Shown: positions 3,700 to 55,969 of the stretch, in pieces
Numbering within the stretch: the first letter of the stretch is position 1
Layout of the letters: every line of letters begins with the position of its first letter
Position numbers and translations under genes: made by a program
Notes under the pieces: generated by a model
The model's database searches: none
The model's input: the letters and a program-made list of their open reading frames with translations, nothing else
What the model was told of the DNA's origin: nothing
From: Verrucomicrobiia bacterium
GTDB taxonomy: Bacteria > Verrucomicrobiota > Verrucomicrobiia > JABWAM01
NCBI GenBank assembly: GCA_028687435.1
Contig: JAQUAF010000022.1
Location: forward strand, 398-64,397
Direction: 5' to 3'
Length of the DNA: 64,000 bases

Positions 3700-3706
3700 A
3701 ACGGTG

Positions 3707-15406: not shown

Positions 15407-16996
15407 TTAATGGTCGCAGGCATTGTCGCCGGTTTCAAGCGTTCCCTTCAAATGGGCAAGAACCAGAGCCTCGGCGGATTCTGCCGGGGCGCCCACCTTG
15501 ACATCAATGCCTTTTTCGCGGAACAGCGCCTGCGCCCGCTGGCCCATGCCGCCGGCAATCACCAGTCGAACGCCTTTTTCCGCCAGCCACTTGGGCAACA
15601 GGCCCGGCTCGTGTTCCGGCGCGGGGATTTCCTTTTGGCGGACAATGGTTTTTGTTTTCGGGTCCGTTTCGATAATGGCAAAATGTTCGCAATGGCCGAA
15701 ATGAGGGCACAGCTTGCCGTTTTCCGTGGGAATGGCGATGCGCATGATGTTTTCCTTTTCTTTTGGGGTTGTTGTTTCAGGGGATGGCGCCGGTTTGGCG
15801 TTATCAAGATTGAGGATTGCCGCAGCGGCCTGCGTAAAGGCTTGGGCGGCCGGTGTTCCGGCCAGACGGCGGACAAAAGGCGTTCCTTCGTCGCCGGAAA
15901 TTCCCACCGAGGAGTCGAGCGGGATTCTTCCTAGGAAGGGCACTCCCATTTCCCGGGCCATGGCTTCGCCGCCGCCGGTGTTGAACACATTGGTCACTTC
16001 CCCGCATTTTGGGCAAACGAAGCCGCTCATATTTTCGATCACTCCAAGGACGGGCAAATGCAATTGGCGGCAAAAAACAATGGATTTGCGCACGGCCTCC
16101 ACGGCCACGCTTTGCGGGGTGGAAACAATGACCGCCCCGTCCGCGTCGCCGATAAACTGGCAGACCGAGAGCGGCTCATCGCCGGTGCCGGGGGGCGCGT
16201 CCACAATCAAAAAATCGAGGTCCCCCCATTCGACGTCCCCGAGAAACTGGCGGATGGCCGACGTTTTCATCGGCCCCCGCCAGATGACGGGATCGTCCCT
16301 TTCGCGAAGCAGAAAACCGATGGACATGATCCTGATGCCATCCACCTCGGCAGGCATCAAGTTTTCCCCCTTGGACACGATCTCCACATTGCGCGCGGTG
16401 ATCATGCGGGGAACGCTCGGGCCATGGATGTCGGTGTCCAGGAGTCCGGTTTGTTTTCCGGCCATGGCCAGTGACACGGCCAGATTGACCGCCGTGGTGC
16501 TTTTGCCCACACCGCCCTTGCCTGAAAGAACGATGATCTTGTGACGGATGCGTTTCATTCGTTCCCGGATGGTTTTGAGTCCCTCATCGATCCCGGGCTT
16601 TTGGATCGGAGCGTTTTTTTGGGGGGATGCGCAGCCGCCGTTCCTTCCGGCGGGCAGATGTTTTTGATGGTTGTCGATCGCGGCTTTGAGCGTATTGGCT
16701 GCCAGGAGGGCGCAATGACGCGATTCGTCGGGGATGCCTTTGAGGGTGTTCAGGACATCCAATTGCGAAATGGAGCAGGCGTCATCCAGCCTCTTTCCTT
16801 CGGCCAGCCGGGCTGCGGCGCTTCCGCACAAAATGGAATGGATGCAACCGTCGGTGGTGTAGGAACATTGCGTAATGATTTCATCATCGAGCCTGATCCA
16901 AAATTCCATGGTATCGCCGCATGGACCGGTGATCCGGGCATTTCCGCTCGGAGATCGCAAAGGGCCGAAATTTGAGGGCAGGGTTCGGGCTGTCAT
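15407..16996 (-). CDS. three-domain Fe-S biogenesis-type fusion: IscU/NifU-N-like + Mrp/NBP35 P-loop ATPase + NifX/NifB-like domain
   Basis: GPCGDTMEFWI...DGCIHSILCGSAA. VLSGKGGVGKSTTAVNLA with CPKCGE. C-terminal MRIAIPTENGKLCPHFGHCEHFAIIE...LVIAGGMGQRA. ATG 16996 gives an ATGA overlap with the upstream stop. Confidence 0.85.
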   Translation of the reverse strand: MTARTLPSNFGPLRSPSGNARITGPCGDTMEFWIRLDDEIITQCSYTTDGCIHSILCGSAAARLAEGKRLDDACSISQLDVLNTLKGIPDESRHCALLAANTLKAAIDNHQKHLPAGRNGGCASPQKNAPIQKPGIDEGLKTIRERMKRIRHKIIVLSGKGGVGKSTTAVNLAVSLAMAGKQTGLLDTDIHGPSVPRMITARNVEIVSKGENLMPAEVDGIRIMSIGFLLRERDDPVIWRGPMKTSAIRQFLGDVEWGDLDFLIVDAPPGTGDEPLSVCQFIGDADGAVIVSTPQSVAVEAVRKSIVFCRQLHLPVLGVIENMSGFVCPKCGEVTNVFNTGGGEAMAREMGVPFLGRIPLDSSVGISGDEGTPFVRRLAGTPAAQAFTQAAAAILNLDNAKPAPSPETTTPKEKENIMRIAIPTENGKLCPHFGHCEHFAIIETDPKTKTIVRQKEIPAPEHEPGLLPKWLAEKGVRLVIAGGMGQRAQALFREKGIDVKVGAPAESAEALVLAHLKGTLETGDNACDH

Positions 16997-17886
16997 GGTT
17001 TGATCGTTTGGCATAAGTTTTTCCAGATTTGTTCAATGCTTTCCGATGCGGGACCCGGACTGAATTCCATTGCGGTCTGCCCATTCACCTGGGCGCGGGT
17101 CACCATAGGATCGCAGGGTATCCGGGCGCTGAAACGGACGGACGAAGAGGCCTGGCGCTCTATTTTTTCCGTCATGGCGGGATTGATATCCCATTTGTTG
17201 ATGGCAACGGCCATGGGAATTTCAAAGCGCCGGACCAATTCCATGACGCGTTTCAAGTCGTGTTCGCCGGAAAGGGTGGGTTCCGTGACGATGAGAACCA
17301 TGTCGGAGCGGGCGATGGAGGCGATGACCGGGCAGCCAATGCCGGGAGGGCCGTCAATGATGATCAGGCGGCGGTTTTGGGCCAGCGCCACGTTTCGCGC
17401 CATCTCCCGAACCACGCTGACCAGTTTTCCGGAATTTTCAGCCGCCGCGCCGAGCCGGGCATGAACCATCGGGCCAAAACGCGTGTTGGACACAAACCAT
17501 TCTCCGCAAATCCGTTCGACAAGATCCATGGCGCGAACCGGGCAATGATCCACGCAAACTCCGCATCCCTCGCAGGCGGATGGATCGACTTGAAAAGACG
17601 CCTCACCCGCCGTCGCGCCATTCATTCGGATGGCCTCAAAGCGGCAATGGGCCAGGCATCCCCCGCATCGAACGCAATCCTTCTCCTGGATCACAGCCTG
17701 CCATCCGGACCGGAACTCGTGCCGTTCGAGAATCACCGGTTTCAGGAGCAGATGCAGATCGGATGCGTCCACATCGCCATCCACCATGACCGCGCCGCCG
17801 AGCATGCCGGACAACATGGCAAATGAGGCGGCCAGGCTGGTCTTGCCCGTGCCGCCTTTGCCACTGATGACGGTCAACTCTTTCAT
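16993..17886 (-). CDS. MinD/ParA-family P-loop ATPase with inserted 2x[4Fe-4S] ferredoxin domain
   Basis: VISGKGGTGKTSLAASF. CVRCGGCLAHC and CEGCGVCVDHCP. Confidence 0.8.
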   Translation of the reverse strand: MKELTVISGKGGTGKTSLAASFAMLSGMLGGAVMVDGDVDASDLHLLLKPVILERHEFRSGWQAVIQEKDCVRCGGCLAHCRFEAIRMNGATAGEASFQVDPSACEGCGVCVDHCPVRAMDLVERICGEWFVSNTRFGPMVHARLGAAAENSGKLVSVVREMARNVALAQNRRLIIIDGPPGIGCPVIASIARSDMVLIVTEPTLSGEHDLKRVMELVRRFEIPMAVAINKWDINPAMTEKIERQASSSVRFSARIPCDPMVTRAQVNGQTAMEFSPGPASESIEQIWKNLCQTIKP

Positions 17887-18740
17887 GCCGCGCCATCCTT
17901 TGAAAATGAGGAATCCTCAAGGATACGGCGTCCCAATTCTGAAAATTTTTCCCTTAATTCCGGGACAGCCTCGATGGCCGGTTGTCCGTTGGAATAAGCC
18001 TCCGCCACCCGGCGGTTGTCCGGGATTTCCATGAGAATCGGAATGTTTTCCTTTTGGCAATAATCGCAAACCCGGCTGTCTCCCGCATCCGCCCGGTTGA
18101 TGACCGCGCCAAAAGGGAGTTTCAGATGACGGACCGTTTCCACAGCCAGCTTGAAGTCGTGCAGCCCAAAAGGAGTGGGTTCCGTCACCAAAACCACCCG
18201 GTCCACTCCGCGAAGCGCCGCCACCACCGGGCAGGCTGTGCCAGGCGCGCAGTCAATGATGGTTGTTCCGTCAAAGGCAGTTCCTTGTTTGACGGCCCGG
18301 ACGAGAGGGGATGAAAAGGCCTGTCCAATCCTCAATCGGCCCTGCGTGAAAGTGAAATGTCCTTTTATTCCCGTTTCCACATCGCCGATGGAACGGGGAA
18401 CCTCCTCCATTGCGTTGTTGGGACATGATTTGACGCATCCGCCGCATCCATGGCAAAGCTCCTCATAGACGAGCACGCCGGTTGCCAGGCAGGCGATGGC
18501 GTGAAAACGGCAGGCCCGGCTGCATTGTCCGCAATTTACGCATTTTTCGCGATTCACAACTGGCACGGGCAAGGATGCGGTTTTCTTTTTTGGGGTCGGG
18601 ATTTTCAGGAAAAGGTGGCAATTGGGTTCCTCGACATCGCAGTCCAACAGTTGCACCGGCCCGTTGATTGAAAGCGCCAGGTTGACCGCCACCGTGGTTT
18701 TGCCGGTGCCTCCTTTGCCGGAGGCGATGGCGCAAATCAT
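17883..18740 (-). CDS. MinD/ParA-family P-loop ATPase with inserted 2x[4Fe-4S] ferredoxin domain (paralogue)
   Basis: IASGKGGTGKTTVAVNLA. CVNCGQCSRAC and CHGCGGCVKSCP. 4-nt overlaps on both sides. Confidence 0.8.
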   Translation of the reverse strand: MICAIASGKGGTGKTTVAVNLALSINGPVQLLDCDVEEPNCHLFLKIPTPKKKTASLPVPVVNREKCVNCGQCSRACRFHAIACLATGVLVYEELCHGCGGCVKSCPNNAMEEVPRSIGDVETGIKGHFTFTQGRLRIGQAFSSPLVRAVKQGTAFDGTTIIDCAPGTACPVVAALRGVDRVVLVTEPTPFGLHDFKLAVETVRHLKLPFGAVINRADAGDSRVCDYCQKENIPILMEIPDNRRVAEAYSNGQPAIEAVPELREKFSELGRRILEDSSFSKDGAA

Positions 18741-19300
18741 TTTGCCACCTTTGGCGGTTCCATTCGCATGAATTGGAAGGTCTGCCGGTTGCGGTTGATG
18801 AAACGGAAAAAGAAGTCGCGCTCGATTTTGGACAGAATGCTCGAAGCCTGCAAATGATGATCGCTGACCGAAAGTGTTGCCCGCGGTTTGAGGACGCGAT
18901 GAATGGCCGCCAGAATGTCCGACATGGAATGGGTGTCCGGATAAATATGAATCACATCGTAAAGAAGCGCCACGTCCACGCTGTGTTCAGGCACTTCGCC
19001 GATCCGGTTCCGGTGGAGGGGAAGCAGATGACCGGCCTTTTGGCGGACGGCGGCGCGACGGACAAAATCCAATGCCGCAGGCTGGATATCGACCGCGTAA
19101 ACGCGCCCCTTTGGCCCGACAATGCGCGCCGCGGCGAGGGCGAATCCTCCCGGACCGCATCCGAAGTCCAGGACGCTCATGCTTTCCTGAATACCGGCAT
19201 TCAGGAGCACCTTTGCCGGGGAACGAAACAGGTCGCGCAGGCGAATCGCCAGGAGTTCCAGACCATAGGTGAAACGGTTGTGTTGACGCCTTTCTCTCAT
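18737..19300 (-). CDS. class I SAM-dependent methyltransferase
   Basis: Motif I VLDFGCGPGGFA followed by VYAVDIQ. ATG 19300 forms an ATGA overlap with the upstream stop. Confidence 0.75.
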   Translation of the reverse strand: MRERRQHNRFTYGLELLAIRLRDLFRSPAKVLLNAGIQESMSVLDFGCGPGGFALAAARIVGPKGRVYAVDIQPAALDFVRRAAVRQKAGHLLPLHRNRIGEVPEHSVDVALLYDVIHIYPDTHSMSDILAAIHRVLKPRATLSVSDHHLQASSILSKIERDFFFRFINRNRQTFQFMRMEPPKVAK

Positions 19301-19659
19301 GACCAATGCCCTTCGACATCGGCGGATTCCGCTGTCTTCAATTTTCCCGAACGGAATTGTTCGATGGCATCGGATACGGCTCCGCTGGCGCCGACAACCA
19401 CTTGAACATTTGCCGCTTGCAAGGCCCGGAAAGCCTTTGGGCCGCAGTGTCCGGTAATGACAACCTTTGCTCCCGAGCGGGAAACGTTTTCGGCGGATTG
19501 GATGCCGGCGCCTTGGGCGGCATTCAGGTTTTTGGTGTTATCCACCACGCTGAAGGTTTGTTTCTCGGTATCAAAGAGGATGAACCGGGCGGCCCGTCCG
19601 AAACGGGGATCGACCTGTGAATTCAGATCCGCACCGCTTGCTGAAATGGCAATTTTCAT
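19297..19659 (-). CDS. NifB/NifX-family (dinitrogenase FeMo-cofactor-binding-like) small protein
   Basis: MKIAISASGADLNSQVDPRFGRAARFILFDT...VITGHCGPKAFRAL, typical of this family. The upstream 97 codons of the listed ORF are Arg/Gly-rich junk. Confidence 0.75.
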   Translation of the reverse strand: MKIAISASGADLNSQVDPRFGRAARFILFDTEKQTFSVVDNTKNLNAAQGAGIQSAENVSRSGAKVVITGHCGPKAFRALQAANVQVVVGASGAVSDAIEQFRSGKLKTAESADVEGHWS

Positions 19660-19691: not shown

Positions 19692-20129
19692 TTATTCCAT
19701 CCATCGGGAAAAGCATCGTCCCCGGCGGACGCCATGCCCCGGCATGGATCCGGTTTTTTGCGGGGCCTTCCACCAAGGACCCCGTCCAAATCCGCGGCCG
19801 CAGCATCCAGGCATGGCAAAATCCGCCGAAGTCAGACGATCCTCCAGAAAAGCCCGGATGACTTCTTCCGCCTCGCCCGCGACAAAGGGCGTCACCACGA
19901 TGCCTTGCATGGCCAGCATTTGAGCCAGCGGTTGGGAAACCGCCCCGCAAATGAGGGCTTCCACCTTCAATTTTGCCAGTTGCGCGGCCTTGTCCAAAGG
20001 GTCGGTTTTCAAAGCCGTTTCCTTCCGGCGGATGACCTTCCGGCCCTTGAGTTCCAAGAGCAGAAGCCGCCGGGCCGTGTCAAACACCGGCGAAATCCGT
20101 TGATTGTGAATGGCCATGGCGAGTTTCAT
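19692..20129 (-). CDS. NifB/NifX-family protein with Cys/Gly/Arg-rich C-terminal tail
   Basis: MKLAMAIHNQRISPVFDTA...ALICGAVSQPLAQML. Tail MPGCCGRGFGRGPWW resembles DUF5320-type G/R/C tracts. Confidence 0.7.
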   Translation of the reverse strand: MKLAMAIHNQRISPVFDTARRLLLLELKGRKVIRRKETALKTDPLDKAAQLAKLKVEALICGAVSQPLAQMLAMQGIVVTPFVAGEAEEVIRAFLEDRLTSADFAMPGCCGRGFGRGPWWKAPQKTGSMPGHGVRRGRCFSRWME

Positions 20130-20144
20130 GTCTCAGAGGAATAA

Positions 20145-20160
20145 AGCATGTTCCATGCCA
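20145..20160 (-). promoter_or_regulatory. sigma-54 (-24/-12) promoter candidate for the NifX-like operon
   Basis: Minus strand reads TGGCAT-GGAAC-ATGCT (GG-N10-GC). Lies 15 nt upstream of ATG 20129. Confidence 0.55.
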
Positions 20161-20479
20161 TTGCTGATTCGTGATTGTTGACCGGTTGTTTTATCCTTTG
20201 TGCCGGACAAACGGTCTGAATCTTCAAAAATTGAGTCGCGGGATTACGACCGGATGGAAGTGAGGAGTCGCAAATTTGAGGCGCTAAAACAAGGTGATGG
20301 GATTGATTTTTGCGATTTCAATCCTTTTTTGAATGCTGCGAGCGATGCCGCCACCGCAGGCGAATGTTCCATGGCAGTTTCATTATGGGGTTGGATTAGG
20401 ATTGGCCAGTGTTTGAGGTTTTTGGAGCCTTTGTCATGCTGGAAGAGAAAATGAGTGATACTGACAGGAATCCTGTCCC

Positions 20480-21862
20480 TTATTTGTTCTGAAGAGAGGC
20501 TTTGACGAGATTGGCCCCCATGTTCCACATTTCCCCCGGAAATTTATAACATTCCGACAGTGTGGCATCCATGGCCTTGACAATGCGATCAATCTCTTTT
20601 GATCCGATAATCAACGGCGGCGTGATTTTTATTACGTCCATTTGGTGGCCCGTTACCTGGGTCAGGATGCGATGATCGCGCAATAATGGAATCACCACCA
20701 TTTGGGCGAAAAGTCCTTTCTCGGCCGCCTGGAAAATTTTCCATGCCATTCGCAATTTTAGCGACTGTGGTTTGGCAAATTCAATCGCAACCATCAGGCC
20801 TTTGCCGCGGATCTCTTTGATGAATTCATGCCGGGGCATCAGCGCCTTGAGTCCGCTCATCAGGGAGGCGCCCATTTTTTCGGAGTTTTCAACCACCTTT
20901 TCCGCGTCCATGACATGAAGGGTGGCAAGGGCGGCCGCCATGGCCATGTTGTTGCGGCCAAACGTGGTGGAGTGCACGACGCAATGGTGCATGCTGTTGA
21001 AGGTCCGATCATGAATCTCCCGGCGCAGCAAAATTGCCCCACAGGGGACCAAGCCTCCGCTAAGGCTTTTAGCCAGAGTTACAATATCCGGTTCCAGATT
21101 CCAATGCTCGAACGAGTAAAAACGTCCGGTTCGTCCCAAGCCGGTTTGCACCTCGTCGCAAACCAGCAATGTGCCATGTTTCCGGCAAAGTTCCTGGGCT
21201 CGCGGCCAGAAATTTGCGTTCCGCGGGTGGTGGACTGTTTTGCCTTGGATCGGTTCAATGAAAAACGCGGCGTGCTTGCGGGTGGCCAATTCGCGTTCCA
21301 ATGCGGCAACGTCATCCAGATCAACGGCCTGTGAAGGCAAAAGCGAGCCAAAGCGGTTTTTGAAAACATGGCTGCCGTTCATTGATAGGGCGCCGGTTGA
21401 AAGACCGTGAAAAGCCTTGTGGCAATAAAGCAAGCTTTCGCGTCCCGTGAAACAACGCGCGAATTTGATGGCGCCTTCAACCGCCTCGGTGCCGGTATTG
21501 CAGAGGAATACGGCGTTGAGATGCGGAGGAGAACGCTTGACCAATGCCTCGGCCAGCGCTCCACTTAAGAGAGAACAATCCATCTGCACCATATTGGGCA
21601 TGTCGCGATCCAGCAAATTCCGCAGGGTTTGTTTGACGACCGGATGATTGCGCCCGATGTTGACCGCCCCGTATCCGCCAAGACAATCCAAAAAGTCCCT
21701 TCCTTCCCGGTCGTAAAGATAGGCGCCTTGGGCGCGTGAATAAACCTTGTCAAAACCAATGGTTTTAAGAACCTTGACCAACGAGCGATTTAAATATCGG
21801 TCGTGGAGATCGTAATTTTCACCAAGCCGGTTATTGATTATTTCCAAAATGTCAAAATTCAT
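20480..21862 (-). CDS. class-III (acetylornithine/GABA/putrescine-type) PLP aminotransferase
   Basis: 460 aa. GGYGAVNIGRNHP, LVCDEVQTGLGRTGRF, and PLP-lysine context DIVTLAKSLSGG. Confidence 0.85.
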   Translation of the reverse strand: MNFDILEIINNRLGENYDLHDRYLNRSLVKVLKTIGFDKVYSRAQGAYLYDREGRDFLDCLGGYGAVNIGRNHPVVKQTLRNLLDRDMPNMVQMDCSLLSGALAEALVKRSPPHLNAVFLCNTGTEAVEGAIKFARCFTGRESLLYCHKAFHGLSTGALSMNGSHVFKNRFGSLLPSQAVDLDDVAALERELATRKHAAFFIEPIQGKTVHHPRNANFWPRAQELCRKHGTLLVCDEVQTGLGRTGRFYSFEHWNLEPDIVTLAKSLSGGLVPCGAILLRREIHDRTFNSMHHCVVHSTTFGRNNMAMAAALATLHVMDAEKVVENSEKMGASLMSGLKALMPRHEFIKEIRGKGLMVAIEFAKPQSLKLRMAWKIFQAAEKGLFAQMVVIPLLRDHRILTQVTGHQMDVIKITPPLIIGSKEIDRIVKAMDATLSECYKFPGEMWNMGANLVKASLQNK

Positions 21863-21967
21863 GGTTTTTTCTGTAAAGGTTCGATTTCAGGGGGGCGCCG
21901 GGTTTCGTCAATGTCGTGTTTTTCCGGTTGTTGCATCTTATCGCTCTTTTCAGAAAAGAGGGAAGAA

Positions 21968-21983
21968 AGCAGGCGAAATGCCA
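21968..21983 (-). promoter_or_regulatory. sigma-54 promoter candidate for the aminotransferase gene
   Basis: Minus strand reads TGGCAT-TTCGC-CTGCT, ~105 nt upstream of ATG 21862. Confidence 0.55.
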
Positions 21984-22158
21984 AGCGCCAATCCGGGAAG
22001 GAAATGGTGGAAGAAGGAGCTCACCGGCGGCCAGATGAACGGGTGCAGAGTCGCAGTTTTGCGTCTTTTGAGATGAAAACGGTTGCGGAATTGCGATAAG
22101 AAATGATTCGAGTCCATAAATTTCGGGATTTTCATGCTTTAGGGGCGTTTTTGCGGAT

Positions 22159-22174
22159 TGGCACATGGTCTGCT
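22159..22174 (+). promoter_or_regulatory. sigma-54 promoter candidate for the hydrogenase-large-subunit-like gene
   Basis: TGGCAC-ATGGT-CTGCT, 15 nt before ATG 22190. Divergent from the 21968 site. Confidence 0.5.
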
Positions 22175-22189
22175 TGCTTTACTGAAGAT

Positions 22190-23425
22190 ATGAGCAAGGT
22201 CACCATTCCCATCGGGCCGCAGCATCCGGCGTTAAAGGAGCCGGAGAGTTTTATTCTGACGTTGAACGGAGAGAAGATTTATAAAATGGATATGCGCCTG
22301 GGTTACAACCACCGGGGCATTGAAAAAGCCTGCGAAGAACGGACCTATATTCAGAGCATGTACCTTCTCGAACGCGTTTGCGGCATCTGTTCTCATTCTC
22401 ATTCAACGGCGTTTGTTCAAGCGGTGGAGGAACTTGCCGGTTTGCAGGTTCCCAAGCGGGGGCTTTACATTCGCACGCTTATCGCCGAATTGGAGCGCAT
22501 CCACAGCCATCTTCTGTGGTTGGGGGTGGCGGCCCACGAGGTGGGGTTTGACACGCTCCTGATGTATGTGTGGCGCGACCGGGAAATTGTGATGGATCTT
22601 TTGTCGGAGATCTCGGGCAGCCGCGTCAATTATGCGATGAACACCATTGGAGGGGTCCGCCGGGACGTCACTCCCGAGCAAACGCGGCGGGTGTTGAAAG
22701 CCATGGACGCGCTTGAGGAGCGCACCAAGTATTACATTCAGGTGGCCGCCGAGGAAACCACGTTGATTTCGCGCCTTTCCAATGTCGGTTATCTTTCGCA
22801 TGAGGACGCCTTGCGTCTGGGCGCTGTGGGGCCGACCGCCCGAGCTTCGGGTGTTGACCAGGATACGCGGCGCGATGATCCCTATGCGGCTTACGGGGAT
22901 TTTTCGTTCAAGGTGATCACCGACCGCCACAATGATGTGTACGGAAGGGTGATTGTGCGCACGCTGGAATTGATGGAGACGTATGGCATTTGCCGCCAGG
23001 TTTGCAAAAATCTGCCGGATGGGCCCATTGCCGTGAAGGCGCCGCGAAAGATTCCATCGGGCGAGGCATTGAGCCGCTACGAGGCGCCGAGGGGAGAGGA
23101 TGTGCACTATGTGAAGTCCAATGGAACGGACAAGCCCGAACGGGTGAAGGTCCGCGCGCCGACCCTGGCCAATCTGCAGGCGGTCAGCAAGATGATGGAA
23201 AAAAACCGTCTGGCCGACGCGCCCATCATCATTGCGGCGATTGATCCTTGTTTCTCCTGCACTGATCGCGCCATTGAGATAAGAAATCCACAAGATGGCG
23301 TCCGGGACGTCATGACATGGGAGCGCATGCAAAAGCGCGGCGTCGAGTGGTACCGCCGCCAGGGCATTGACTTTGCCGGGGCGAACAAGCGGCTTGAAAA
23401 AAGAATGGAAAAGCTAACGCGGTAA
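22190..23425 (+). CDS. group-4-type [NiFe]-hydrogenase large subunit / NuoD-family homologue
   Basis: IPIGPQHPALKEPESF N-terminus. N-terminal Ni-Fe ligand motif RVCGICSHSH. C-terminal DPCFSCTDR followed by a ~50-aa extension. Start taken at MSKVTIPIG. Confidence 0.75.
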   Translation: MSKVTIPIGPQHPALKEPESFILTLNGEKIYKMDMRLGYNHRGIEKACEERTYIQSMYLLERVCGICSHSHSTAFVQAVEELAGLQVPKRGLYIRTLIAELERIHSHLLWLGVAAHEVGFDTLLMYVWRDREIVMDLLSEISGSRVNYAMNTIGGVRRDVTPEQTRRVLKAMDALEERTKYYIQVAAEETTLISRLSNVGYLSHEDALRLGAVGPTARASGVDQDTRRDDPYAAYGDFSFKVITDRHNDVYGRVIVRTLELMETYGICRQVCKNLPDGPIAVKAPRKIPSGEALSRYEAPRGEDVHYVKSNGTDKPERVKVRAPTLANLQAVSKMMEKNRLADAPIIIAAIDPCFSCTDRAIEIRNPQDGVRDVMTWERMQKRGVEWYRRQGIDFAGANKRLEKRMEKLTR

Positions 23426-23451
23426 AATGAAAGGCCGGGGAGTTCCGAATC

Positions 23452-25284
23452 GTGAATGAATTCGATCTTTTGAGACATTCCTGCGCCCATGTCATGGCCG
23501 CGGCCATCGCCAGGCTCTGGCCGGATGCCCAATTCGCCGCCGGACCGGCCGTGGAAAACGGTTTTTATTACGATGTTGAACTTGAACATCGGATCAGTCC
23601 CGCGGATTTCGACAAGATCGAGGCGGAAATGCGCCGGCTGGTTGAGAATGATCTTCCGTTTCAAAAAATCGAGGTCACCCGCGCCAATGCGACGGATTGC
23701 GCAAAACGGGGGAGGCTGGCGGCGCTGGGAGATCGTCCGGTTCCAAGCAAATACAAGCTGGATATTCTGGATGGCATTTCCGGCGGCGTGGCGGTCAGCC
23801 TGTATCAGTGCGGCGATTTCATTGATTTGTGTTCGGGGCCGCATGTCGAACGGACCGGCGTCATTGAAGCATTCAAGCTGACCGGAGTGGCCAGCGCTTT
23901 CTACAAAGGGGATGAAAGCAGCCCCCAGTTGCAGCGGATTTACGGGACGGCTTTTCCGCGCAAAGCGGATCTCGACGCTTATTTTGCGATGTTGGAAGAA
24001 TCCAAAAAACGCGACCATCGCAAATTGGGCCGCGATTTGGAGTTGTTTCTTTTGGATGATTTGACGGGTCCGGGGCTGGTGCTCTGGCAACCCAAAGGCG
24101 CCATTATCCGGCAGGAACTTCAAAATTTCATCAGCGAGGAGTTGCGCCTTCAGGGGTATGATCAGGTTTTTACGCCTCACATTGGCAATCTGCAACTCTT
24201 CCGGACTTCGGGGCATTTTCCCTATTATCAGGAGTCGCAATATCCTCCGCTGGTCGAACGTGAAGTTTTGAGCCGGTTGGCCCGGGAGGGATGTTCGTGC
24301 GCCGATCTGAGCAACCGTCTTAAAGAGGGAACCGTTGAGGGGTTCCTTCTCAAGCCAATGAATTGTCCGATGCATATTCGCATCTTTGCCAGCCGTCCGC
24401 GTTCCTACCGCGAGTTGCCCGTCCGCCTTGCGGAGTTTGGCACGGTCTACCGGTGGGAGCAATCCGGTGAACTTAATGGAATGACTCGTGTTCGCGGCTT
24501 TACCCAGGATGACGCGCATATTTTCGCCGCGGAGGATCAACTTGCGGGCGAATTGCTCGCCTGTCTGAAATTGGTTCAGAAGGTTTTTACAACACTTGGA
24601 ATGAAGGATTACCGCATCCGGATTGGTCTTCGCGATCCGCACAGCGACAAATATGCCGGATCGCCGGAAAATTGGTCGCGCGCCGAGAACGCCTTGCGCG
24701 AAGCGGCGGCAACGCTCGCGTTTTCCCATGCCGAGGAGATTGGGGAAGCGGCGTTCTACGGTCCCAAAATAGATTTTGTGATCAGGGATGTCATCGGCCG
24801 TTCGTGGCAACTTGGAACGGTCCAGGTGGATTACAATCTGCCCGAGCGCTTTGATTTGCTGTATGCCGGCGCTGATGGCGCAAAACATCGTCCGGTGATG
24901 ATCCATCGCGCGCCTTTCGGAAGCATGGAACGGTTTTGCGGGATGTTGATCGAGCATTACGGCGGGGCCTTTCCAGTATGGCTGGCGCCGGAACAGGCGC
25001 GGATTTTGCCGATTACGGATGCGCAGACATCCTGGGCGCGCGAGGTTTGCCGGCGTTTGTTTGATCAGGGAATCCGGGTGACTGTGGATGAAAAAAATGA
25101 CAAAATTGGCGGCAAGATCAGGAATGCCCAACTCGAAAAAATTCCATACATGCTGATTGTCGGCGCGCGTGAAATGTCTGGACGGCAGGTGGCGTTGCGC
25201 ACCCGGGCGGGGGGGGATGAGGGAGCCGTGGGTGTGGACGCATTGGTGAGCCGGATTCTTGCCGAAATCCGCTCGCGCCAGTGA
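23452..25284 (+). CDS. thrS: threonine--tRNA ligase (lacks the N-terminal TGS domain)
   Basis: LLRHSCAHVMAAAI editing-domain motif at the very N-terminus. Class II core FRTSGHFPYY, RVRGFTQDDAHIF. Anticodon-binding C-terminus. GTG start. Confidence 0.9.
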   Translation: MNEFDLLRHSCAHVMAAAIARLWPDAQFAAGPAVENGFYYDVELEHRISPADFDKIEAEMRRLVENDLPFQKIEVTRANATDCAKRGRLAALGDRPVPSKYKLDILDGISGGVAVSLYQCGDFIDLCSGPHVERTGVIEAFKLTGVASAFYKGDESSPQLQRIYGTAFPRKADLDAYFAMLEESKKRDHRKLGRDLELFLLDDLTGPGLVLWQPKGAIIRQELQNFISEELRLQGYDQVFTPHIGNLQLFRTSGHFPYYQESQYPPLVEREVLSRLAREGCSCADLSNRLKEGTVEGFLLKPMNCPMHIRIFASRPRSYRELPVRLAEFGTVYRWEQSGELNGMTRVRGFTQDDAHIFAAEDQLAGELLACLKLVQKVFTTLGMKDYRIRIGLRDPHSDKYAGSPENWSRAENALREAAATLAFSHAEEIGEAAFYGPKIDFVIRDVIGRSWQLGTVQVDYNLPERFDLLYAGADGAKHRPVMIHRAPFGSMERFCGMLIEHYGGAFPVWLAPEQARILPITDAQTSWAREVCRRLFDQGIRVTVDEKNDKIGGKIRNAQLEKIPYMLIVGAREMSGRQVALRTRAGGDEGAVGVDALVSRILAEIRSRQ

Positions 25285-25319
25285 TGTGAACCATGGATTA
25301 TTCAACAAAGGAGATGATT

Positions 25320-25598
25320 ATGCCAGGAGGAGATGGAACAGGACCGATGGGTATGGGACCTTTGACAGGCCGCGGAAGGGGGAGGGGATGCGGAATGGGG
25401 ATGGGACAGGAAATGGGACGCCGCCGTCAAAGACAAAACGTGGTTTTGCCCGGGCCCGCGCCCGAGCCGCCGGATGTTGAGGATGCCGATGAAGATTCCA
25501 TTGAAGTCCTGCAGGAACAAATGGCGGTTTTGGCCGGCCAAATGCAAGCCATTCAACAACGGTTGCATGCCTTGAAGGGCAAGGCAAAGAAACCCTAA
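25320..25598 (+). CDS. DUF5320-family protein
   Basis: MPGGDGTGPMGMGPLTGRGRGRG N-terminus plus a C-terminal coiled coil. AAAGGAG RBS 6 nt before ATG 25320 (in-frame ATGs also at 25293 and 25314). Confidence 0.7.
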   Translation: MPGGDGTGPMGMGPLTGRGRGRGCGMGMGQEMGRRRQRQNVVLPGPAPEPPDVEDADEDSIEVLQEQMAVLAGQMQAIQQRLHALKGKAKKP

Positions 25599-25603
25599 GG
25601 CTT

Positions 25604-26236
25604 ATGCAAGAGTTTCTTGGTCCGACTCTTGCCGGCATTTGTTGCAGCCCCCGAAAGGGACGCGCCACATTTGAAGCCATGACCGTTTGTTTGGAATCCG
25701 CCCGTCAAGCAGAGCCTTCCATCAACACCGTATTGATTGAGCTTGCCGGGCGGCAGATAGGCCATTGCATTGCCTGCGACACCTGCCGGAAAGGGTTGAA
25801 CTGCGGTTTGACTGACGATTTCAGTGATCTGATTTCCATGCTGTCCGCGCCATCCATGATCGGAATCATTATCGGCACACCGGTTTATGTGGGAAACATG
25901 ACTGCCCAATGCAAGGCGTTTTTGGATCGTTCTGTGGTTTTCCGCCGCAACGGATGGCTTTGGCGCGACAAGATTGGAGGCGTTTTGGCGGTTGGCGCTG
26001 TCCGCAATGGAGGGCAGGAACTTGCGATTCAGTCGGTGCGGGCTGCCATGCTCTGTCACGACATGATTTGCATCAGCGAAGGCGGAGGCACTTCGCATTT
26101 CGGCGCCGCATTGGTGAGCGACCAGGCTGGCAGCGTCAGGAATGACGATCAAGGATTGGCCTTGGCGCGAAATCTTGGATCCCGGGCGGCGCGACTGGCT
26201 GTTCAATTGAAACGCGGTTTTGCAACAGCAGGCTGA
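25604..26236 (+). CDS. iron-sulfur flavoprotein / NADPH-dependent FMN reductase-like flavodoxin-fold protein
   Basis: Compact Cys cluster HCIACDTCRKGLNC. GTPVYVGNMTAQCKAFLDR. GGVLAVGAVRNGGQE. Confidence 0.7.
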   Translation: MQEFLGPTLAGICCSPRKGRATFEAMTVCLESARQAEPSINTVLIELAGRQIGHCIACDTCRKGLNCGLTDDFSDLISMLSAPSMIGIIIGTPVYVGNMTAQCKAFLDRSVVFRRNGWLWRDKIGGVLAVGAVRNGGQELAIQSVRAAMLCHDMICISEGGGTSHFGAALVSDQAGSVRNDDQGLALARNLGSRAARLAVQLKRGFATAG

Positions 26237-26382
26237 CGCATGGTTGCAAAAATGCGACCTTGTGCCAGCCATCCTTGATGTTAAGGAAATTCAATGTTTT
26301 CGGATGAAAATGAAATTGAGTCGAGCACTTGTCCCGCCATAGCTCGCAGAGCGAAGGAGGATCGTGCATCGAGCGTCAAACT

Positions 26383-26399
26383 GCCGCGCCCGGCGCGGC
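26383..26399 (+). terminator. GC-rich palindrome followed by a T-rich tract (possible intrinsic terminator after the flavoprotein gene)
   Basis: GCCGCGCC-C-GGCGCGGC followed by TTAATTTAT. No folding energy was computed. Confidence 0.35.
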
Positions 26400-26444
26400 T
26401 TAATTTATCCGATGCAAACCCTGCGCATTTTTCCATCCGGGGTT

Positions 26445-26460
26445 TGGCATCGCGCCTGCT
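26445..26460 (+). promoter_or_regulatory. sigma-54 promoter candidate for the DUF5320 / radical SAM / thioesterase unit
   Basis: TGGCAT-CGCGC-CTGCT, ~50 nt upstream of the GAAAGGAG RBS and ATG 26510/26516. Confidence 0.55.
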
Positions 26461-26515
26461 CTTGGTTGCGATGGATACGCAGTATGAAAACAAAAAAACA
26501 GAAAGGAGCATGATT

Positions 26516-26878
26516 ATGCCACGAGGAGATGGAACAGGTCCGATGGGAATGGGTCCCAGGAGCGGCCGCGCAATGGGATTTTGCGCGGGTTATCAAATGC
26601 CAGGATGCATGAACGGGGGGGGAGGATGGCGTGGGTTTGGCGGAGGACGCGGATGGAGGAACAGGTTTTTGGCCACCGGCATGCCGGGATGGCAGCGCGC
26701 GGCAATGGGGATGCAGGCTTTTGACGGCGGAAATTATCCGCCCCAGGCCATTCCCCAAGTGATGAGCCGGGAACAGGAAATCGAAATGCTCAAGGCCCAG
26801 GCGGAATTCCTGCAAAAACAGGTTGAGGCCGTCCATGAACGCCTGAGGGAAACGCAAAAAGAGTCCAAAAACAAGTGA
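26516..26878 (+). CDS. DUF5320-family protein (paralogue)
   Basis: MPRGDGTGPMGMGPRSGRAMGFCAGY, a G/R/W-rich middle region, and a C-terminal coiled coil EIEMLKAQAEFLQKQVEAVHERL. Same RBS/ATGATTATG arrangement as 25320. Confidence 0.7.
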   Translation: MPRGDGTGPMGMGPRSGRAMGFCAGYQMPGCMNGGGGWRGFGGGRGWRNRFLATGMPGWQRAAMGMQAFDGGNYPPQAIPQVMSREQEIEMLKAQAEFLQKQVEAVHERLRETQKESKNK

Positions 26879-26942
26879 TGCCATCGGGGAGTTCGCACAG
26901 GGCGGACTCCCCGGCGGAATTTATTCTCCCATCCCGCGGCAC

Positions 26943-27896
26943 ATGAGCTGTCCATGCAAATATGTTTTTGGTCCCGTACCCTCGCGCCGGCTGGGACGAT
27001 CACTGGGGCTGGATTTGGTTCCTTTCAAAACCTGCACCTTCGATTGTCTTTATTGCCAGTTGGGGCGGACCACAGACTTGACGGTCAAGCGCAAGCCTTA
27101 TGTGCCGTCCCAAGCTGTTTTGGAGGAATTGGACCGGTATCTGAAGACGGGCATTCGTCCCGATTACATCACTTTCTCGGGATCCGGCGAGCCGACTTTG
27201 AATTCCGATCTGGGATGCCTGATTGCCGCCGTCAAGCGGCGGACACGCATCCCGGTGGCTGTCCTGACCAACGCATCTCTTCTATGGAAGCCCGCGGTGA
27301 GGGACGCCCTTGCCGCCGCGGATGTGGTTTTACCCTCGTTGTCGGCGGGGAACAGCAGGATTTTTCATTTGGTGAACCGTCCGCATTCTGATTTGAAGTA
27401 CGGCCTGATGCTGGAGGGATTGTTGAAATTCGCCCATCAATTCAAGGGGAAAATATGGTTTGAGGTGTTCCTGTTGAAAGGCATTACCAGCATGGAAAAA
27501 GAGGTTGAAAGACTGGCGAAGGTGGCCCGAAAAATCAATCCGTCGCGGATCCAGCTCAATACGGTGATTCGCCCGCCCAGCGATCCCCTGGCGAAGCCCG
27601 TTTCCACCGAAAAGATGAGGCATCTGGCGTTTCAATTCGGACGCAATGCGGAAATTCTTCCGGATTTTCATGCCTCCCGCGGATCAAAAAGCCGGACGGG
27701 AGAAGCAACCGGGATAAAAGCCTTGCTTGGACGCCGGCCCTGCACCCTTTCCGACATCGCCCAAGGTCTTCATATCAGCCATTCCGAAGCGCTTAAAATC
27801 CTGGGAAAATTGATTGAACAAAAATCCGTTGTTTCGAAAAGACAGAATGGACAGGCGTTTTTTACAACCATCGGCGCACAGGGGGAAAACCGTTGA
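26943..27896 (+). CDS. radical SAM protein
   Basis: GPVPSRRLGRSLGLDLVPFKTCTFDCLYCQLG (CxxxCxxC). GSGEPTL. Probable C-terminal winged-helix region. Confidence 0.8.
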   Translation: MSCPCKYVFGPVPSRRLGRSLGLDLVPFKTCTFDCLYCQLGRTTDLTVKRKPYVPSQAVLEELDRYLKTGIRPDYITFSGSGEPTLNSDLGCLIAAVKRRTRIPVAVLTNASLLWKPAVRDALAAADVVLPSLSAGNSRIFHLVNRPHSDLKYGLMLEGLLKFAHQFKGKIWFEVFLLKGITSMEKEVERLAKVARKINPSRIQLNTVIRPPSDPLAKPVSTEKMRHLAFQFGRNAEILPDFHASRGSKSRTGEATGIKALLGRRPCTLSDIAQGLHISHSEALKILGKLIEQKSVVSKRQNGQAFFTTIGAQGENR

Positions 27897-28339
27897 ATTT
27901 GAAACCCTCCGCCAGACGTCTGACGGCTTTGAGACACAAACATCACAAGGATTGTGTGATATGCGGTTCCGCAAACACAGGCGGATTGGGGCTTCGATGC
28001 CGGGTTCAACGGGATGGCGGCGTCGCCGCTTTTTTCACCGGGAGCCGTTTGTTGCAGGGATATGATGGATGGCTGCATGGCGGAGTCATTGCCGCCCTTT
28101 TGGACAGCGCCATGACCCACTGCCTTTTTGCCCATGGCTGCCCTGCGCCCACGGCCGAACTTCAAGTGCGTTACAGCCATCCGGTGAGGGCCGGCCGGCG
28201 GATGCGCGTGTCCGCCCGCATCGTCCAGTCAAAACATCCGCTTCATGTCCTTGCGGCCGAGCTTTGCCAGGACGGACAAGTCAAGGCCCGGGCTTCCGGG
28301 AAATTTGTGGCGAAGAGTCTTTCCGGATTGAAGACGTGA
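27893..28339 (+). CDS. PaaI-family hotdog-fold thioesterase
   Basis: CVICG zinc-ribbon-like N-terminus and GWLHGGVIAALLDSAMTH. TTG start overlapping the upstream stop (TTGA). Confidence 0.7.
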   Translation: MNLKPSARRLTALRHKHHKDCVICGSANTGGLGLRCRVQRDGGVAAFFTGSRLLQGYDGWLHGGVIAALLDSAMTHCLFAHGCPAPTAELQVRYSHPVRAGRRMRVSARIVQSKHPLHVLAAELCQDGQVKARASGKFVAKSLSGLKT

Positions 28340-28562
28340 TTTTTGACCCGGTTTTGAGGGCAGGGAGAAGGATGGGGAATAGGAAATTTGTCTCCGAAAA
28401 CATCCGTTTTGTCATGAAAAACGCGGCATGTTTTTGATCGTGCCAAAAATCCAAAGCGGAAAATCCTGTTAAAGTCCGCCGGTTTCGTCTAGAAACTCCG
28501 AACGCCCGATTCTTTGAGCCGCCGATCGGCGGCCGGGAGAAACGCGACTGTTTATTTTTGCC

Positions 28563-29975
28563 ATGGAGCCATTTTCAAATTCATCGTCGAATGTTTCCGT
28601 TCGAAAAACGGGGCATCCCGAAACCGGCCTGACCCAGATTATTCTGGAAAGCGTTTCCGACGGAGTTTTTACCATTGATCATGACTGGCGGATCACCTCG
28701 TTCAACCGCGCCGCAGAGGAAATCACCGGCATTCCCCGCCGGGAGGCGGTGGGCAGGCGTTGTTCGGAGGTTTTCCGATCAAGCATGTGCGAGGCTGATT
28801 GCGCCCTTCGTCACACGATGAAATGCCGGCGTCCGGTGGTTCATCGCGCGGCTTACATCATCGACGCGTGCGGACGGCGCGTTCCCATCAGCCTTTCCAC
28901 GGCGGTGCTGCGGGATGGGCGCGGAAAAATCATCGGCGGCGTGGAAACTTTCCGGGATTTGAGCGCGCTGGAGGAATTGCGCAAGGAATTGGAGGGGCGG
29001 TTTGAAATCGGCGACCTGGCCAGCCGGAGCGTCAAGCTTCGGAAAATTCTGGAGATCCTGCCCCAGATCGCGGCCGCCGACAGCGCCGTTCTGATCGAGG
29101 GCGAAACCGGCGTCGGCAAGGAAATTGTGGCCCGGGCCATCCATGCCGCCAGCCCGCGGCGGGACAAGCCGTTTGTGGCGGTCAATGCCGGCGCGTTGCC
29201 CGACGCCCTTGTCGAATCGGAACTTTTCGGTTACAAGGCCGGCGCGTTCACCGGCGCCACAAAGGACAAGCCCGGACGCTTTGCCGCCGCGGAAGGCGGC
29301 ACCCTGTTTCTGGATGAAATCGGCGAAATCAGCCCGGCCATGCAGGTGCGCCTGCTGCGTGTCCTGCAAAACAAAATTTACGAACCGCTGGGCGCCAACC
29401 AAAGCGTCAAGGCCAATGTTCGCATCATCGCTGCGACCAATCGAAACCTGCCCGCGATGGTCAAAAGCGGCGCGTTCCGCCAGGATCTGTATTACCGCCT
29501 CAATGTCGTGCATCTGCGCCTGCCTCCGTTGCGGGAGCGCAAGGAGGACATCCCCTTGCTGGTCGAACGGTTTATCGCCCATTTCAACCGCCTGCGAAAC
29601 AAAAACGTCAGGGAAACCAGCCCTGAAACCATGGCGGTGTTGATGGCCCACGATTATCCAGGCAATGTCCGGGAACTGGAAAACATCATCGAACATGCCT
29701 TTATCCTGTGCGACAAGGAAACCATCGAACTTCGCCATCTGCCCGAACATTTTTATTCCCGGGGCGGGGAAGGTTTGGACCGCCAGGGAATAGCCGGTTT
29801 TGTCCGGGTTGTGGAAGCCCAGGCCATTCGCGAAGCCATCCAGCGTCATCACGGCAGCCGGCTGGAGGCGGCTCGGGCCTTGGGCATGCACAAAAGCACG
29901 CTCTTTCGCAAACTCAAGGCGCTGGGAATTGTTCCTCCGTCCAAGAGCGCGGAGTCGCGCAAAAGCGACCATTGA
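28563..29975 (+). CDS. sigma-54-dependent transcriptional activator (PAS - AAA+ - Fis HTH)
   Basis: PAS ([22 protein letters not shown]). Walker [22 protein letters not shown] sigma-54 contact motif. C-terminal [13 protein letters not shown]. Confidence 0.9.
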
Positions 29976-30044
29976 GAATCCGGATGGCGCGTTTTTGAGA
30001 CTGCGCCGCACGGGCAAACGCTCCAAGGGGGGGGGTTGTCCTTC

Positions 30045-30060
30045 TGGCATCCCGATTGCT
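30045..30060 (+). promoter_or_regulatory. sigma-54 promoter candidate for the aldolase gene
   Basis: TGGCAT-CCCGA-TTGCT, the closest match to TGGCAC-N5-TTGCW. Lies 70 nt after the activator stop and 44 nt before ATG 30104. Confidence 0.65.
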
Positions 30061-35019: not shown

Positions 35020-35123
35020 TCGAAACAACAGTCGCGCAAAAGCGACTCCCCTCCCGGTCTGTATCGCAACCATGCAACCCCAAAAGACATTCATGCGTCC
35101 ATTCCCTCTTTCCGCCACGCGAC

Positions 35124-35720
35124 ATGCCGGAAAAACGGCGTTTTGGCATTCCGGCTGCTTGGGATTCCATCGTGAAAATTGACACGCCTGCCCATATCAA
35201 ACGCCGGTTTGCGGATTCCCTGTTTGCGTGGGGCCGCAGGCTGTCGGAAAACAATCTGATGGGGCCGCATTCCGATGGGCTTTGCGGCAGTCTCAGTTAT
35301 CGGCATGCCTTGGGCATGGTCATCACTTCCCCCCCGGCCCGGATGGATCGGCTGAGCGATCACGATCTGCGTTTCATCGAGGTGCTGAAACTCCAGCAGG
35401 ATGGCGGAGGCGTTTTGACCTCGAAACCGCCGGACGCCATCCAGTCATGCCACGCCCTTGCGTATCAATCCCAGGGCGGGGTTATTTTTGTCTTCCATGT
35501 CATTGACCCGCGTCTTGAGAAAGCCGCAACCAAGGTTGGTTTGATTGCCATTGATTCCGATCCAGCCGCCAACCCATCCTGTTTTCAGGCCGAATTTGAA
35601 ACCCAACTGGCCAGATGCAATGTGATCGCGGTCCGCAATCGGGGCGTTTTTTCGCTTGGTTGCACCGCTGAGGATGCGGGAGAACAAATCATGAGGCTTT
35701 GCTTGAAACTGAAAACTTGA
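35124..35720 (+). CDS. class II aldolase/adducin-fold protein with degenerate metal site
   Basis: GSLSYRHALGMVITSPPARMDRL aligns by eye to FucA GNVSVRYQDGMLITPTG, and AYQSQGGVIFVFHV to AYQSRPDANAVVHNH. ATG 35124 chosen because the ORF overlaps the previous gene upstream of it. Confidence 0.5.
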   Translation: MPEKRRFGIPAAWDSIVKIDTPAHIKRRFADSLFAWGRRLSENNLMGPHSDGLCGSLSYRHALGMVITSPPARMDRLSDHDLRFIEVLKLQQDGGGVLTSKPPDAIQSCHALAYQSQGGVIFVFHVIDPRLEKAATKVGLIAIDSDPAANPSCFQAEFETQLARCNVIAVRNRGVFSLGCTAEDAGEQIMRLCLKLKT

Positions 35721-36666: not shown

Positions 36667-36729
36667 TCCAAGATGGCATGATGGTTGGACTTTGGAAGCA
36701 TGAATCAAAATCAGAGAAAGGAATCTGCC

Positions 36730-45327: not shown

Positions 45328-45331
45328 GGGA

Positions 45332-46228: not shown

Positions 46229-46252
46229 GTGTTTTTGATTGTTGATTCAGGA

Positions 46253-55954: not shown

Positions 55955-55969
55955 TATGGTGAATATCAG

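Follow-up and report, generated by a model that had tools for sequence, protein, structure and literature searches.

Six candidate sigma-54 promoters with paired palindromic upstream sites around an OrpR-type activator gene in an uncultured Verrucomicrobiia bacterium

Several short elements resembling sigma-54 promoters are scattered over a stretch of 64,000 nucleotides from an uncultured landfill bacterium (Verrucomicrobiia; contig JAQUAF010000022.1, positions 398 to 64,397), and the locus raises the question whether they form one regulon under the enhancer-binding protein (EBP) encoded among them. The whole 64-kb stretch is referred to as the window, and all positions are window positions. 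An initial annotation, made from the letters alone, had proposed such a regulon of one PAS-domain EBP and sigma-54 promoters around Fe-S cofactor genes. The proposal gained support from a paired upstream activating sequence (UAS), an OrpR-type cysteine motif in the EBP and a gene for MrpORP. Judged from these sequence features, six sites are very probably sigma-54 promoters that are co-regulated by the OrpR-type EBP of the window. The regulon corresponds to the OrpR/orp circuit already described for Desulfovibrio vulgaris and is not new in kind (PMC8359166, PMC3897727). The present analysis adds a sixth promoter, a UAS of paired palindromes, a wide distribution among phyla, a candidate lineage-specific expansion and predicted near-leaderless transcripts.

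The five 16-mers reported initially were recovered exactly, in sequence, coordinates and strand. These are P1, TGGCATGGAACATGCT (20145-20160, minus strand), upstream of an orp7-like gene; P2, TGGCATTTCGCCTGCT (21968-21983, minus strand), upstream of a class-III aminotransferase gene; P3, TGGCACATGGTCTGCT (22159-22174, plus strand), upstream of a hydrogenase subunit gene; P4, TGGCATCGCGCCTGCT (26445-26460, plus strand), upstream of genes for a DUF5320 protein, a radical SAM protein and a 4HBT thioesterase; and P5, TGGCATCCCGATTGCT (30045-30060, plus strand), upstream of an HMGL-like aldolase gene. A further site, P6, TGGCATTCCGGCTGCT (35144-35159, plus strand), had been missed, so that the total is six instead of five. 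All of them have the GG and GC dinucleotides of sigma-54 (-24/-12) promoters, 10 nt apart in a TGGCAC-N5-TTGCW-like context, and P5 is the sole perfect match to the consensus.

The pattern TGGCAYNNNNNNTGCT (TGGCAY-N6-TGCT) was matched six times in the window, compared with 0.30 matches on average (maximum 3) in 100 shuffled sequences that preserved the dinucleotide composition, none of which reached six matches. For grading, the GG and GC dinucleotides were fixed and every GG-N10-GC in the window was scored against TGGCAYN5TTGCW; the six sites were the only ones with at most one mismatch. Each is intergenic and lies on the strand of a gene with its start 12-105 nt downstream. Positions were regarded as qualifying when they were intergenic, correctly oriented and at most 150 nt before a start. 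Because only 2.5% of the position/strand combinations qualify, the placement of 6/6 sites corresponds to P ~3e-10; the GG-N10-GC sites with two mismatches were in qualifying positions in 0 of 20 cases. The initial remark that look-alikes lack the -12 GC was borne out by five other one-mismatch matches to a looser pattern, which have GG, GA or AC at this place. The check for matches inside genes or on the wrong strand, which had also been suggested, was done within the 64-kb window with the result given above for the six best sites.

The motifs are short and were found by pattern matching alone, and such matches might be due to chance or represent remnants of repeat elements without promoter function. 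This explanation can practically be dismissed in view of the excess over the shuffled sequences (6 vs 0.3 expected, 0/100 shuffles at 6), the placement statistics, the co-occurrence of palindromes with the sites, the lack of repeat structure and the conservation of the layout across phyla. Extended similarity between the promoter regions was not found, nor was any repeat structure around the sites. The promoter regions are therefore not recent duplicates, and an origin from a duplicated cassette was ruled out by the absence of extended repeats.

A search for a shared UAS in the 200 nt upstream of the sites, as recommended in the initial annotation, yielded the common palindrome GTCGC-N6-GCGAC. 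With at most one mismatch, it occurs six times in the window, and five of these copies precede the six promoters by 67-187 bp; the divergent promoters P2 and P3 share one of the five, which sits between them. Every primary palindrome has a weaker partner at a distance of exactly 32 bp (20235/20267, 22050/22082, 26243/26211, 29954/29986, 35031/35063). Partners with at most two mismatches are present at 4/5 primary sites, with ~0.007 such partners expected per site. The pair of P1 (20235-20282) consists of GTCGCGGGATTACGAC (20235-20250) and GTCGCAAATTTGAGGC (20267-20282), and the pair common to P2 and P3 (22050-22097) of GTCGCAGTTTTGCGTC (22050-22065) and GTTGCGGAATTGCGAT (22082-22097). At P4 (26211-26258) the sites are AACGCGGTTTTGCAAC (26211-26226) and GTTGCAAAAATGCGAC (26243-26258), at P5 (29954-30001) GTCGCGCAAAAGCGAC (29954-29969, within the 3' end of the EBP gene) and GGCGCGTTTTTGAGAC (29986-30001), and at P6 (35031-35078) GTCGCGCAAAAGCGAC (35031-35046) and ATCGCAACCATGCAAC (35063-35078). 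The P5 palindrome is a perfect copy and identical to the P6 copy, and the 18-mer AGTCGCGCAAAAGCGAC(T/C) is near-identical at both promoters. Relative to the predicted start sites, the centres of the primary UAS are at -100 to -131, with one at -220 (P4). For sigma-54 activators, a pair of dimer sites separated by three helical turns and placed at enhancer distance is the classical layout.

A weaker sigma-54-like site with two mismatches, TGGCCTACAACATGCT (58564-58579, plus strand), was observed 165 nt before a gene for a 1341-aa CobN/Mg-chelatase, which stands among ExbB/DUF2162 genes. No GTCGC palindrome was detected near this site, and it is therefore probably outside the present regulon.

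The EBP is encoded at 28563-29975 (plus strand). It had been designated the sole activator in the window with a GAFTGA motif, and this was confirmed by Pfam scans and tblastn, which revealed a single Sigma54_activat protein. An exact-sequence search for the EBP in public assemblies gave no entry. The Pfam domains are PAS_9/PAS_4 (residues 27-136), Sigma54_activat (154-318), AAA_lid_14 and HTH_8 (414-453), and thus follow the order of the OrpR family (PAS, AAA+ with a GAFT(G/D)A loop, Fis-type HTH). In the PAS domain, the motif C67-S-E69-x6-C76-x3-C80 has the same spacing as C52/E54/C61/C65 of OrpR (C-x-[DE]-x6-C-x3-C). Among the first 80 loci, this motif was present in 33/33 PAS-including matches of at least 46% identity and in 0/47 of the remaining EBPs, of which 7 matched across the PAS region at 36-44% identity and 40 matched in the AAA+ domain only. 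The gene also lies in an orp-gene neighbourhood with candidate sigma-54 promoters. The NCBIfam scores for nifA (335 vs 529 bits) and NorR (303 vs 476 bits) were below the cut-offs. Based on the PAS cysteine motif and the orp neighbourhood, the EBP was placed with OrpR and not with NifA/NorR, and by its sequence it belongs to the OrpR family of D. vulgaris (DVU2106). The conserved residues suggest that it is redox-responsive. NifA/NorR-type EBPs, which respond to redox/O2 or NO, resemble the EBP of the window in being one-component regulators with an N-terminal sensor that gates the AAA+ domain and with tandem UAS before -24/-12 promoters. Their sensors use GAF domains (with a non-haem iron centre in NorR), unlike the PAS domain found here.

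A perfect palindrome, GCCGCCGATCGGCGGC (28520-28553), was observed directly upstream of the EBP start, with a GCGACT half-site and a T-rich run after it. It may be a terminator/attenuator or an autoregulatory site. OrpR of D. vulgaris represses its own sigma-70 promoter.

In D. vulgaris, both divergent orp operons depend on the sigma-54 EBP OrpR (DVU2106), which binds a 17-bp imperfect palindrome, GGGCGYRTTTTGCGCCC, and senses the redox potential via a [4Fe-4S] cluster in its PAS domain; C52, C61 and C65 are needed, and an acidic residue is conserved at position 54, all four being proposed as ligands of the cluster (PMC8359166). The OrpR sites are located at -131 and -88 (PMC3897727). The window and D. 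vulgaris Hildenborough are alike in the PAS/AAA+/HTH architecture of the EBP, in its three PAS cysteines and acidic residue with identical spacing, in an EBP gene that is embedded among its own targets and in a divergent promoter pair. Common to both are also -24/-12 promoters with a palindromic, A/T-centred and GC-armed UAS ~90-130 nt upstream, and NifX/orange-protein-like proteins, two MinD-ferredoxin ATPases and MrpORP as targets, putative ones in the window. The D. vulgaris start sites were reportedly mapped by Fievet et al. in J Bacteriol in 2011.

The two systems differ in the number of promoters (six in the window vs two), in the UAS (two palindromes 32 bp apart per promoter vs one reported), in the palindrome arms (GTCGC with a 6-nt spacer vs GGGCGC with 5) and in the loop of the EBP (GAFTGA vs GAFTDA). 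The window MrpORP has an additional NifU/IscU domain, unlike that of D. vulgaris. Additional putative targets in the window are the [NiFe] large subunit and thrS, the aminotransferase, the HMGL-like aldolase, the radical SAM and 4HBT proteins, and the ARMT1 and CGGC proteins. Near-leaderless spacing is found at three window promoters, in contrast to the annotated Shine-Dalgarno sequences at the orp promoters of D. vulgaris (PMC3897727). The hosts differ as well, the window being derived from a landfill bacterium whose best protein matches are mostly metagenome-assembled genomes (MAGs) of the PVC group, and not from a Desulfovibrio.

The conservation of the module was analyzed by a scan of one genome per species and an additional metagenome scan, in which neighbours were counted within 10 kb. 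Full-length relatives of the EBP at 44-66% identity were found in Victivallales, Lentisphaerales, Verrucomicrobiota, Planctomycetota, Gemmatimonadota, SAR324, Desulfobacterota, Geobacter, Spirochaetota and others, adjoining homologs of the NifX-like, DUF5320, MinD-ferredoxin, Mrp, ARMT1, 4HBT, radical-SAM and FMN-reductase genes of the window. An EBP with the cysteine motif was present in 74 loci (Lentisphaerota, Verrucomicrobiota, Planctomycetota, Desulfobacterota, Spirochaetota and others). The neighbours in these loci were NifX1 (45), NifX2 (29), DUF5320 (21), the MinD-ferredoxin pair (18) and ARMT1 (9), and more rarely radical SAM (6), Mrp (6), 4HBT (3) and FMN reductase (2). An orp7-like gene with sufficient upstream sequence was available in 51 loci, and a sigma-54 site with at most two mismatches directly preceded it in 33/51. 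Palindromes of the form TYGC-N5-6-GCRA were 15-fold enriched in the 290 nt upstream of the orp7-like gene (3.04 vs 0.20 per kb). At least one was present in 33/51 loci, mostly 115-190 nt before the start and often in two copies 30-33 bp apart. This relaxed form alone is conserved; in other phyla, most canonical promoters are not preceded by the exact GTCGC-N6-GCGAC. The arms vary with the lineage: the window and its closest relatives have GTCGC, D. vulgaris has GGGCGC, and ATTGC or TTGCA occurs in Planctomycetota and others.

The promoters might also be genuine sigma-54 promoters under one or more EBPs encoded elsewhere, with the palindromes serving as sites of another protein such as a repressor or a nucleoid protein. 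The palindrome is unlike the published OrpR box, the window covers just 64 kb of the genome, and dozens of EBPs are common in anaerobes (PMC4641369). We consider this explanation improbable, as palindrome pairs are found at the classical UAS distance at each of the six promoters and hardly anywhere else, OrpR orthologs and adjacent orp7 promoters have related palindromes in 33/51 loci of many phyla, and EBP genes usually lie close to the genes that they control (PMC8359166).

Several of the closest relatives have TGGCAYNNNTCRTGWT as orp7 promoter, with a canonical -24 element and the -12 GC replaced (GTGA/GTGT). These loci belong to five PVC-group MAGs and one metagenome contig (L001:12843-12858, L002:11482-11497, L004:15174-15189, L005:13208-13223, L010:11501-11516 and L099:1705-1720). 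A GTCGC- or TCGC-type palindrome lies ~105-140 nt upstream in 5/6 loci; none was found at L099 under the pattern used. The sequence may be a lineage-specific variant of the -12 element.

A number of observations speak against control of all six promoters by the OrpR-type EBP. The first position of TTGC is C or A instead of T in 5/6 sites. In the 64-kb window, rpoN was not found by tblastn, nor was an RpoN box. None of the RNA runs contains the window sequence, which is essentially confined to one landfill metagenome run. The UAS of P4 is distant (-220), a terminator hairpin intervenes, and its second site is weak (3 mismatches). Matches to the consensus of integration host factor (IHF), WATCARNNNNTTR, with at most one mismatch were absent from all UAS-promoter intervals, and two-mismatch matches occurred at the background rate. 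In this respect the window differs from D. vulgaris, where IHF is needed for activation of the orp promoters (PMC3897727); the requirement for an IHF site is a trait of the D. vulgaris promoters and not of the protein family. The arms (GTCGC) and the spacing (5-6-5) of the palindromes are unlike the D. vulgaris site (GGGCGC, 17 bp). On sequence grounds, the UAS palindromes are related to the D. vulgaris OrpR box and not the same. Because of these differences in arms and spacing, we infer binding of the EBP to the palindromes from their co-occurrence. ChIP-seq of OrpR in D. vulgaris gave the two orp operons as sole targets (PMC8359166), and a six-promoter regulon is thus a departure from the one studied case. 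Finally, leaders of 2-5 nt without Shine-Dalgarno sequence are unusual for sigma-54 promoters and would make the mode of translation of these genes puzzling.

Such leaders are predicted from the spacing at three promoters. The gap between promoter core and start codon is 15 nt to ATG at P1 (20129-20145) and P3 (22175-22190), and 12 nt to GTG at P6 (35160-35172). Since these promoters lie very close to the start codons, near-leaderless mRNAs with leaders of ~2-5 nt and no Shine-Dalgarno sequence are predicted, provided that initiation occurs ~11 nt after the core. For the orp7-like and the hydrogenase gene, the start codon is established by N-terminal conservation and homolog length. The distance from the core to the orp7 ATG has a bimodal distribution over the loci: in 8 loci, from several phyla, it is 11-18 nt and there is no Shine-Dalgarno sequence, and in the others it is 23-42 nt and a GGAG-type sequence is present. 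Starts 11-15 nt after the core without Shine-Dalgarno sequence were observed at L015, L021, L022, L024, L027, L117 and L118, which predicts leaderless transcripts or leaders of 1-5 nt. Sludge runs labelled 'RNA-Seq' cover the Geobacter-like ortholog locus L022 at a depth of 3-6; their library source is listed as metagenomic, and some of the contigs cross the promoter and others end near it. A literature search on leaderless sigma-54 transcripts returned nothing directly relevant. If real, near-leaderless sigma-54 transcripts would be an unusual combination of promoter type and translation mode.

The genes downstream of P1 had been described as a NifX-like operon. The NifX-like label was retained on the basis of Pfam; more exactly, this is an orp operon with a bona fide MrpORP gene. 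On the minus strand, it comprises a Nitro_FeMo-Co (NifX-like, Orp7-like) protein as first gene product (19692-20129), a second Nitro_FeMo-Co protein of 119 aa (orange-protein/Orp8-like; 19297-19656), a SAM-dependent methyltransferase (Pfam, NCBIfam; 18737-19306) and two MinD/CbiA-type ATPases with a 2x[4Fe-4S] ferredoxin insert (Orp3/Orp4-like; 17883-18740 and 16993-17886). The last gene (15407-17014) encodes an MrpORP (Orp9) ortholog, a NifU_N-Mrp-Nitro_FeMo-Co fusion. It reached 510 bits with the MrpORP equivalog NF041136 (cut-off 450), and residues 153-526 cover profile positions 1-365 of 365. The additional N-terminal NifU_N/IscU scaffold domain (residues 6-118) lies outside this 365-position NCBIfam profile. 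The ORP complex of D. vulgaris has been loosely linked to cell division and to Fe-S delivery. MrpORP is an Fe-S carrier that loads the Orp3-Orp4-Orp8 complex (PMC6345978); the window operon resembles this system in an MrpORP that covers the whole profile (P-loop NTPase and di-nitrogenase Fe-Mo cofactor domain) and in the Orp3/4/8-like partners, and differs in the inserted methyltransferase gene and the N-terminal IscU/NifU domain.

The gene labels assigned initially to the targets (NifX-like, class-III aminotransferase, NiFe-hydrogenase/NuoD-like, DUF5320/radical SAM/4HBT thioesterase and HMGL-like aldolase) agreed with Pfam. P4 precedes genes for DUF5320 (26516-26878), radical SAM (26943-27896) and 4HBT thioesterase (27893-28339) proteins, all on the plus strand, and the EBP gene follows 223 nt further on. 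Downstream of P6, also on the plus strand, are a class-II-aldolase-like open reading frame (ORF) with a weak Pfam match and an uncertain GTG start (35172-35720), an ARMT1 damage-control phosphatase gene (35788-36666) and a gene for a CGGC-domain protein (36685-37080). The putative target of P2 is the class-III aminotransferase gene (20480-21862, minus strand), the product of which is below all NCBIfam equivalog cut-offs. The product of the HMGL-like aldolase gene under P5 (30104-31099, plus strand) has 4-hydroxy-2-oxovalerate aldolase models as its nearest ones, NF006049 (subfamily, top score) and TIGR03217 (equivalog), and is below the cut-off of both.

P2, P3 and P5 might be non-functional or cryptic look-alikes, with the orp-type promoters (P1, P4, perhaps P6) as the sole functional OrpR targets. 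In the other 73 loci, the neighbourhood of OrpR lacks genes for the aminotransferase, the HMGL-like aldolase and the hydrogenase subunit/thrS, save for two weak aminotransferase matches. D. vulgaris OrpR has orp targets only (PMC8359166), and the P3 leader would be ~5 nt long with no ribosome-binding site. This restriction appears very improbable all the same. The agreement with the promoter consensus is as good for P2, P3 and P5 as for P1, P4 and P6, and perfect for P5; the palindrome pairs of P2, P3 and P5 are equal or better, with the P5 copy perfect and identical to that of P6; and the 15-nt spacing between promoter and ATG is also found at the core orp promoter P1 and at orp7 orthologs of other phyla. 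Closer relatives suitable for footprinting of P2, P3 and P5 were not found in the genome and metagenome scans, which peak at 66-69% EBP identity. That the OrpR switch has grown in this lineage from a two-operon circuit to a six-promoter regulon, capturing a [NiFe] catalytic subunit, thrS and amino/keto-acid enzymes, is a tentative proposal that we regard as rather doubtful.

The 105-nt leader of the aminotransferase mRNA contains a 25-codon ORF, MQQPEKHDIDETRRPPEIEPLQKKP (21862-21936, minus strand), the TGA of which and the start codon of the aminotransferase gene share letters (ATGA). The predicted P2 start site is spanned by a perfect hairpin, CTCTTTTC-T-GAAAAGAG (21944-21960).

The gene under P3 (22190-23425, plus strand) had been called hydrogenase-like. 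The assignment to the NiFe-hydrogenase/NuoD-like proteins was upheld by Pfam and was corrected to a complete group-4 (Mbh-type) [NiFe]-hydrogenase large subunit. Both cysteine pairs are present (RVCGIC and DPCFSC), corresponding to the nickel-iron ligand motifs RxCGxC and DPCxxC of group 4 large subunits. The protein is 70-82% identical to large subunits within complete Mbh/Mrp-type group-4 operons, and these relatives are all encoded in full operons of this type with HycI. Genes for a NuoB-like small subunit, NuoC-like and NuoH-like proteins, a ferredoxin or an Mrp antiporter were not found beside it. The protein is a hydrogenase-type large subunit, and the locus is not a hydrogenase operon because the gene stands alone between the aminotransferase gene and thrS. 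A misassembly at this gene was considered unlikely; independent Logan contigs of the source run (X1) cover both flanks at even depth. The Logan contigs of X1 end inside the conserved hydrogenase gene at 23155-23180.

The putative P3 operon continues on the plus strand with thrS (23452-25284), a DUF5320 gene (25293-25598) and a gene for an FMN_red flavoprotein (25604-26236), and a G+C-rich hairpin followed by a T-rich tail (26383-26399) is its likely terminator. The thrS gene begins 26 nt after the orphan hydrogenase gene, and its product passed TIGR00418 at 651 bits. An own promoter of thrS was not detected, and no TGS domain in its product was reported by Pfam. This gene of an essential type may be read from the sigma-54/OrpR promoter, or else it may be a second copy.

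From these features and the analogy with D. vulgaris OrpR, we infer sigma-54 dependence, EBP-palindrome binding, Fe-S binding and redox control, and the following mechanism is proposed. Dimers of the EBP would bind constitutively to both GTCGC-N6-GCGAC palindromes, 32 bp (~three helical turns) apart, upstream of the six promoters. At low redox potential, the PAS domain would hold a [4Fe-4S] cluster on C67, C76 and C80 (plus E69). As long as the cluster is intact, the AAA+ domain would assemble and touch the sigma-54 holoenzyme via GAFTGA, and the promoters would open. Oxidation of the cluster would stop activation, with the EBP staying on the DNA. The targets would comprise the orp genes proper (two NifX-like proteins, two MinD-ferredoxin ATPases, MrpORP and DUF5320), accessory genes that travel with OrpR in other phyla (radical SAM, 4HBT, ARMT1 phosphatase and FMN reductase), and lineage-specific genes (the orphan [NiFe] large subunit followed by thrS, the class-III aminotransferase and the HMGL-like aldolase).

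The distribution of the OrpR/orp module, which combines an Fe-S PAS motif with a palindromic UAS, extends far beyond the Deltaproteobacteria to Lentisphaerota, Verrucomicrobiota, Planctomycetota, Spirochaetota and others. The layout of two palindromes three helical turns apart is usable for predicting OrpR regulons in metagenomes. The putatively co-regulated genes for the radical SAM protein, thioesterase, ARMT1 phosphatase, FMN reductase, orphan hydrogenase subunit, aminotransferase and aldolase may hint at the ORP pathway. Should the ORP metallocluster-carrier complex have the orphan large subunit as a client or partner, the locus would offer a first functional handle on the role of the complex.

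Elsewhere in the window, three large ORFs (487, 740 and 269 aa) at 17-4516 and, at the contig end, ORFs of 321-482 aa at 41011-47701 had no Pfam match. A TonB-dependent receptor at 54410-57040 (plus strand) is seemingly split, with Cys_rich_CWC and Plug encoded at 54410-55954 and the beta-barrel at 55970-57040. A frameshift, a pseudogene and a genuine split are all conceivable.

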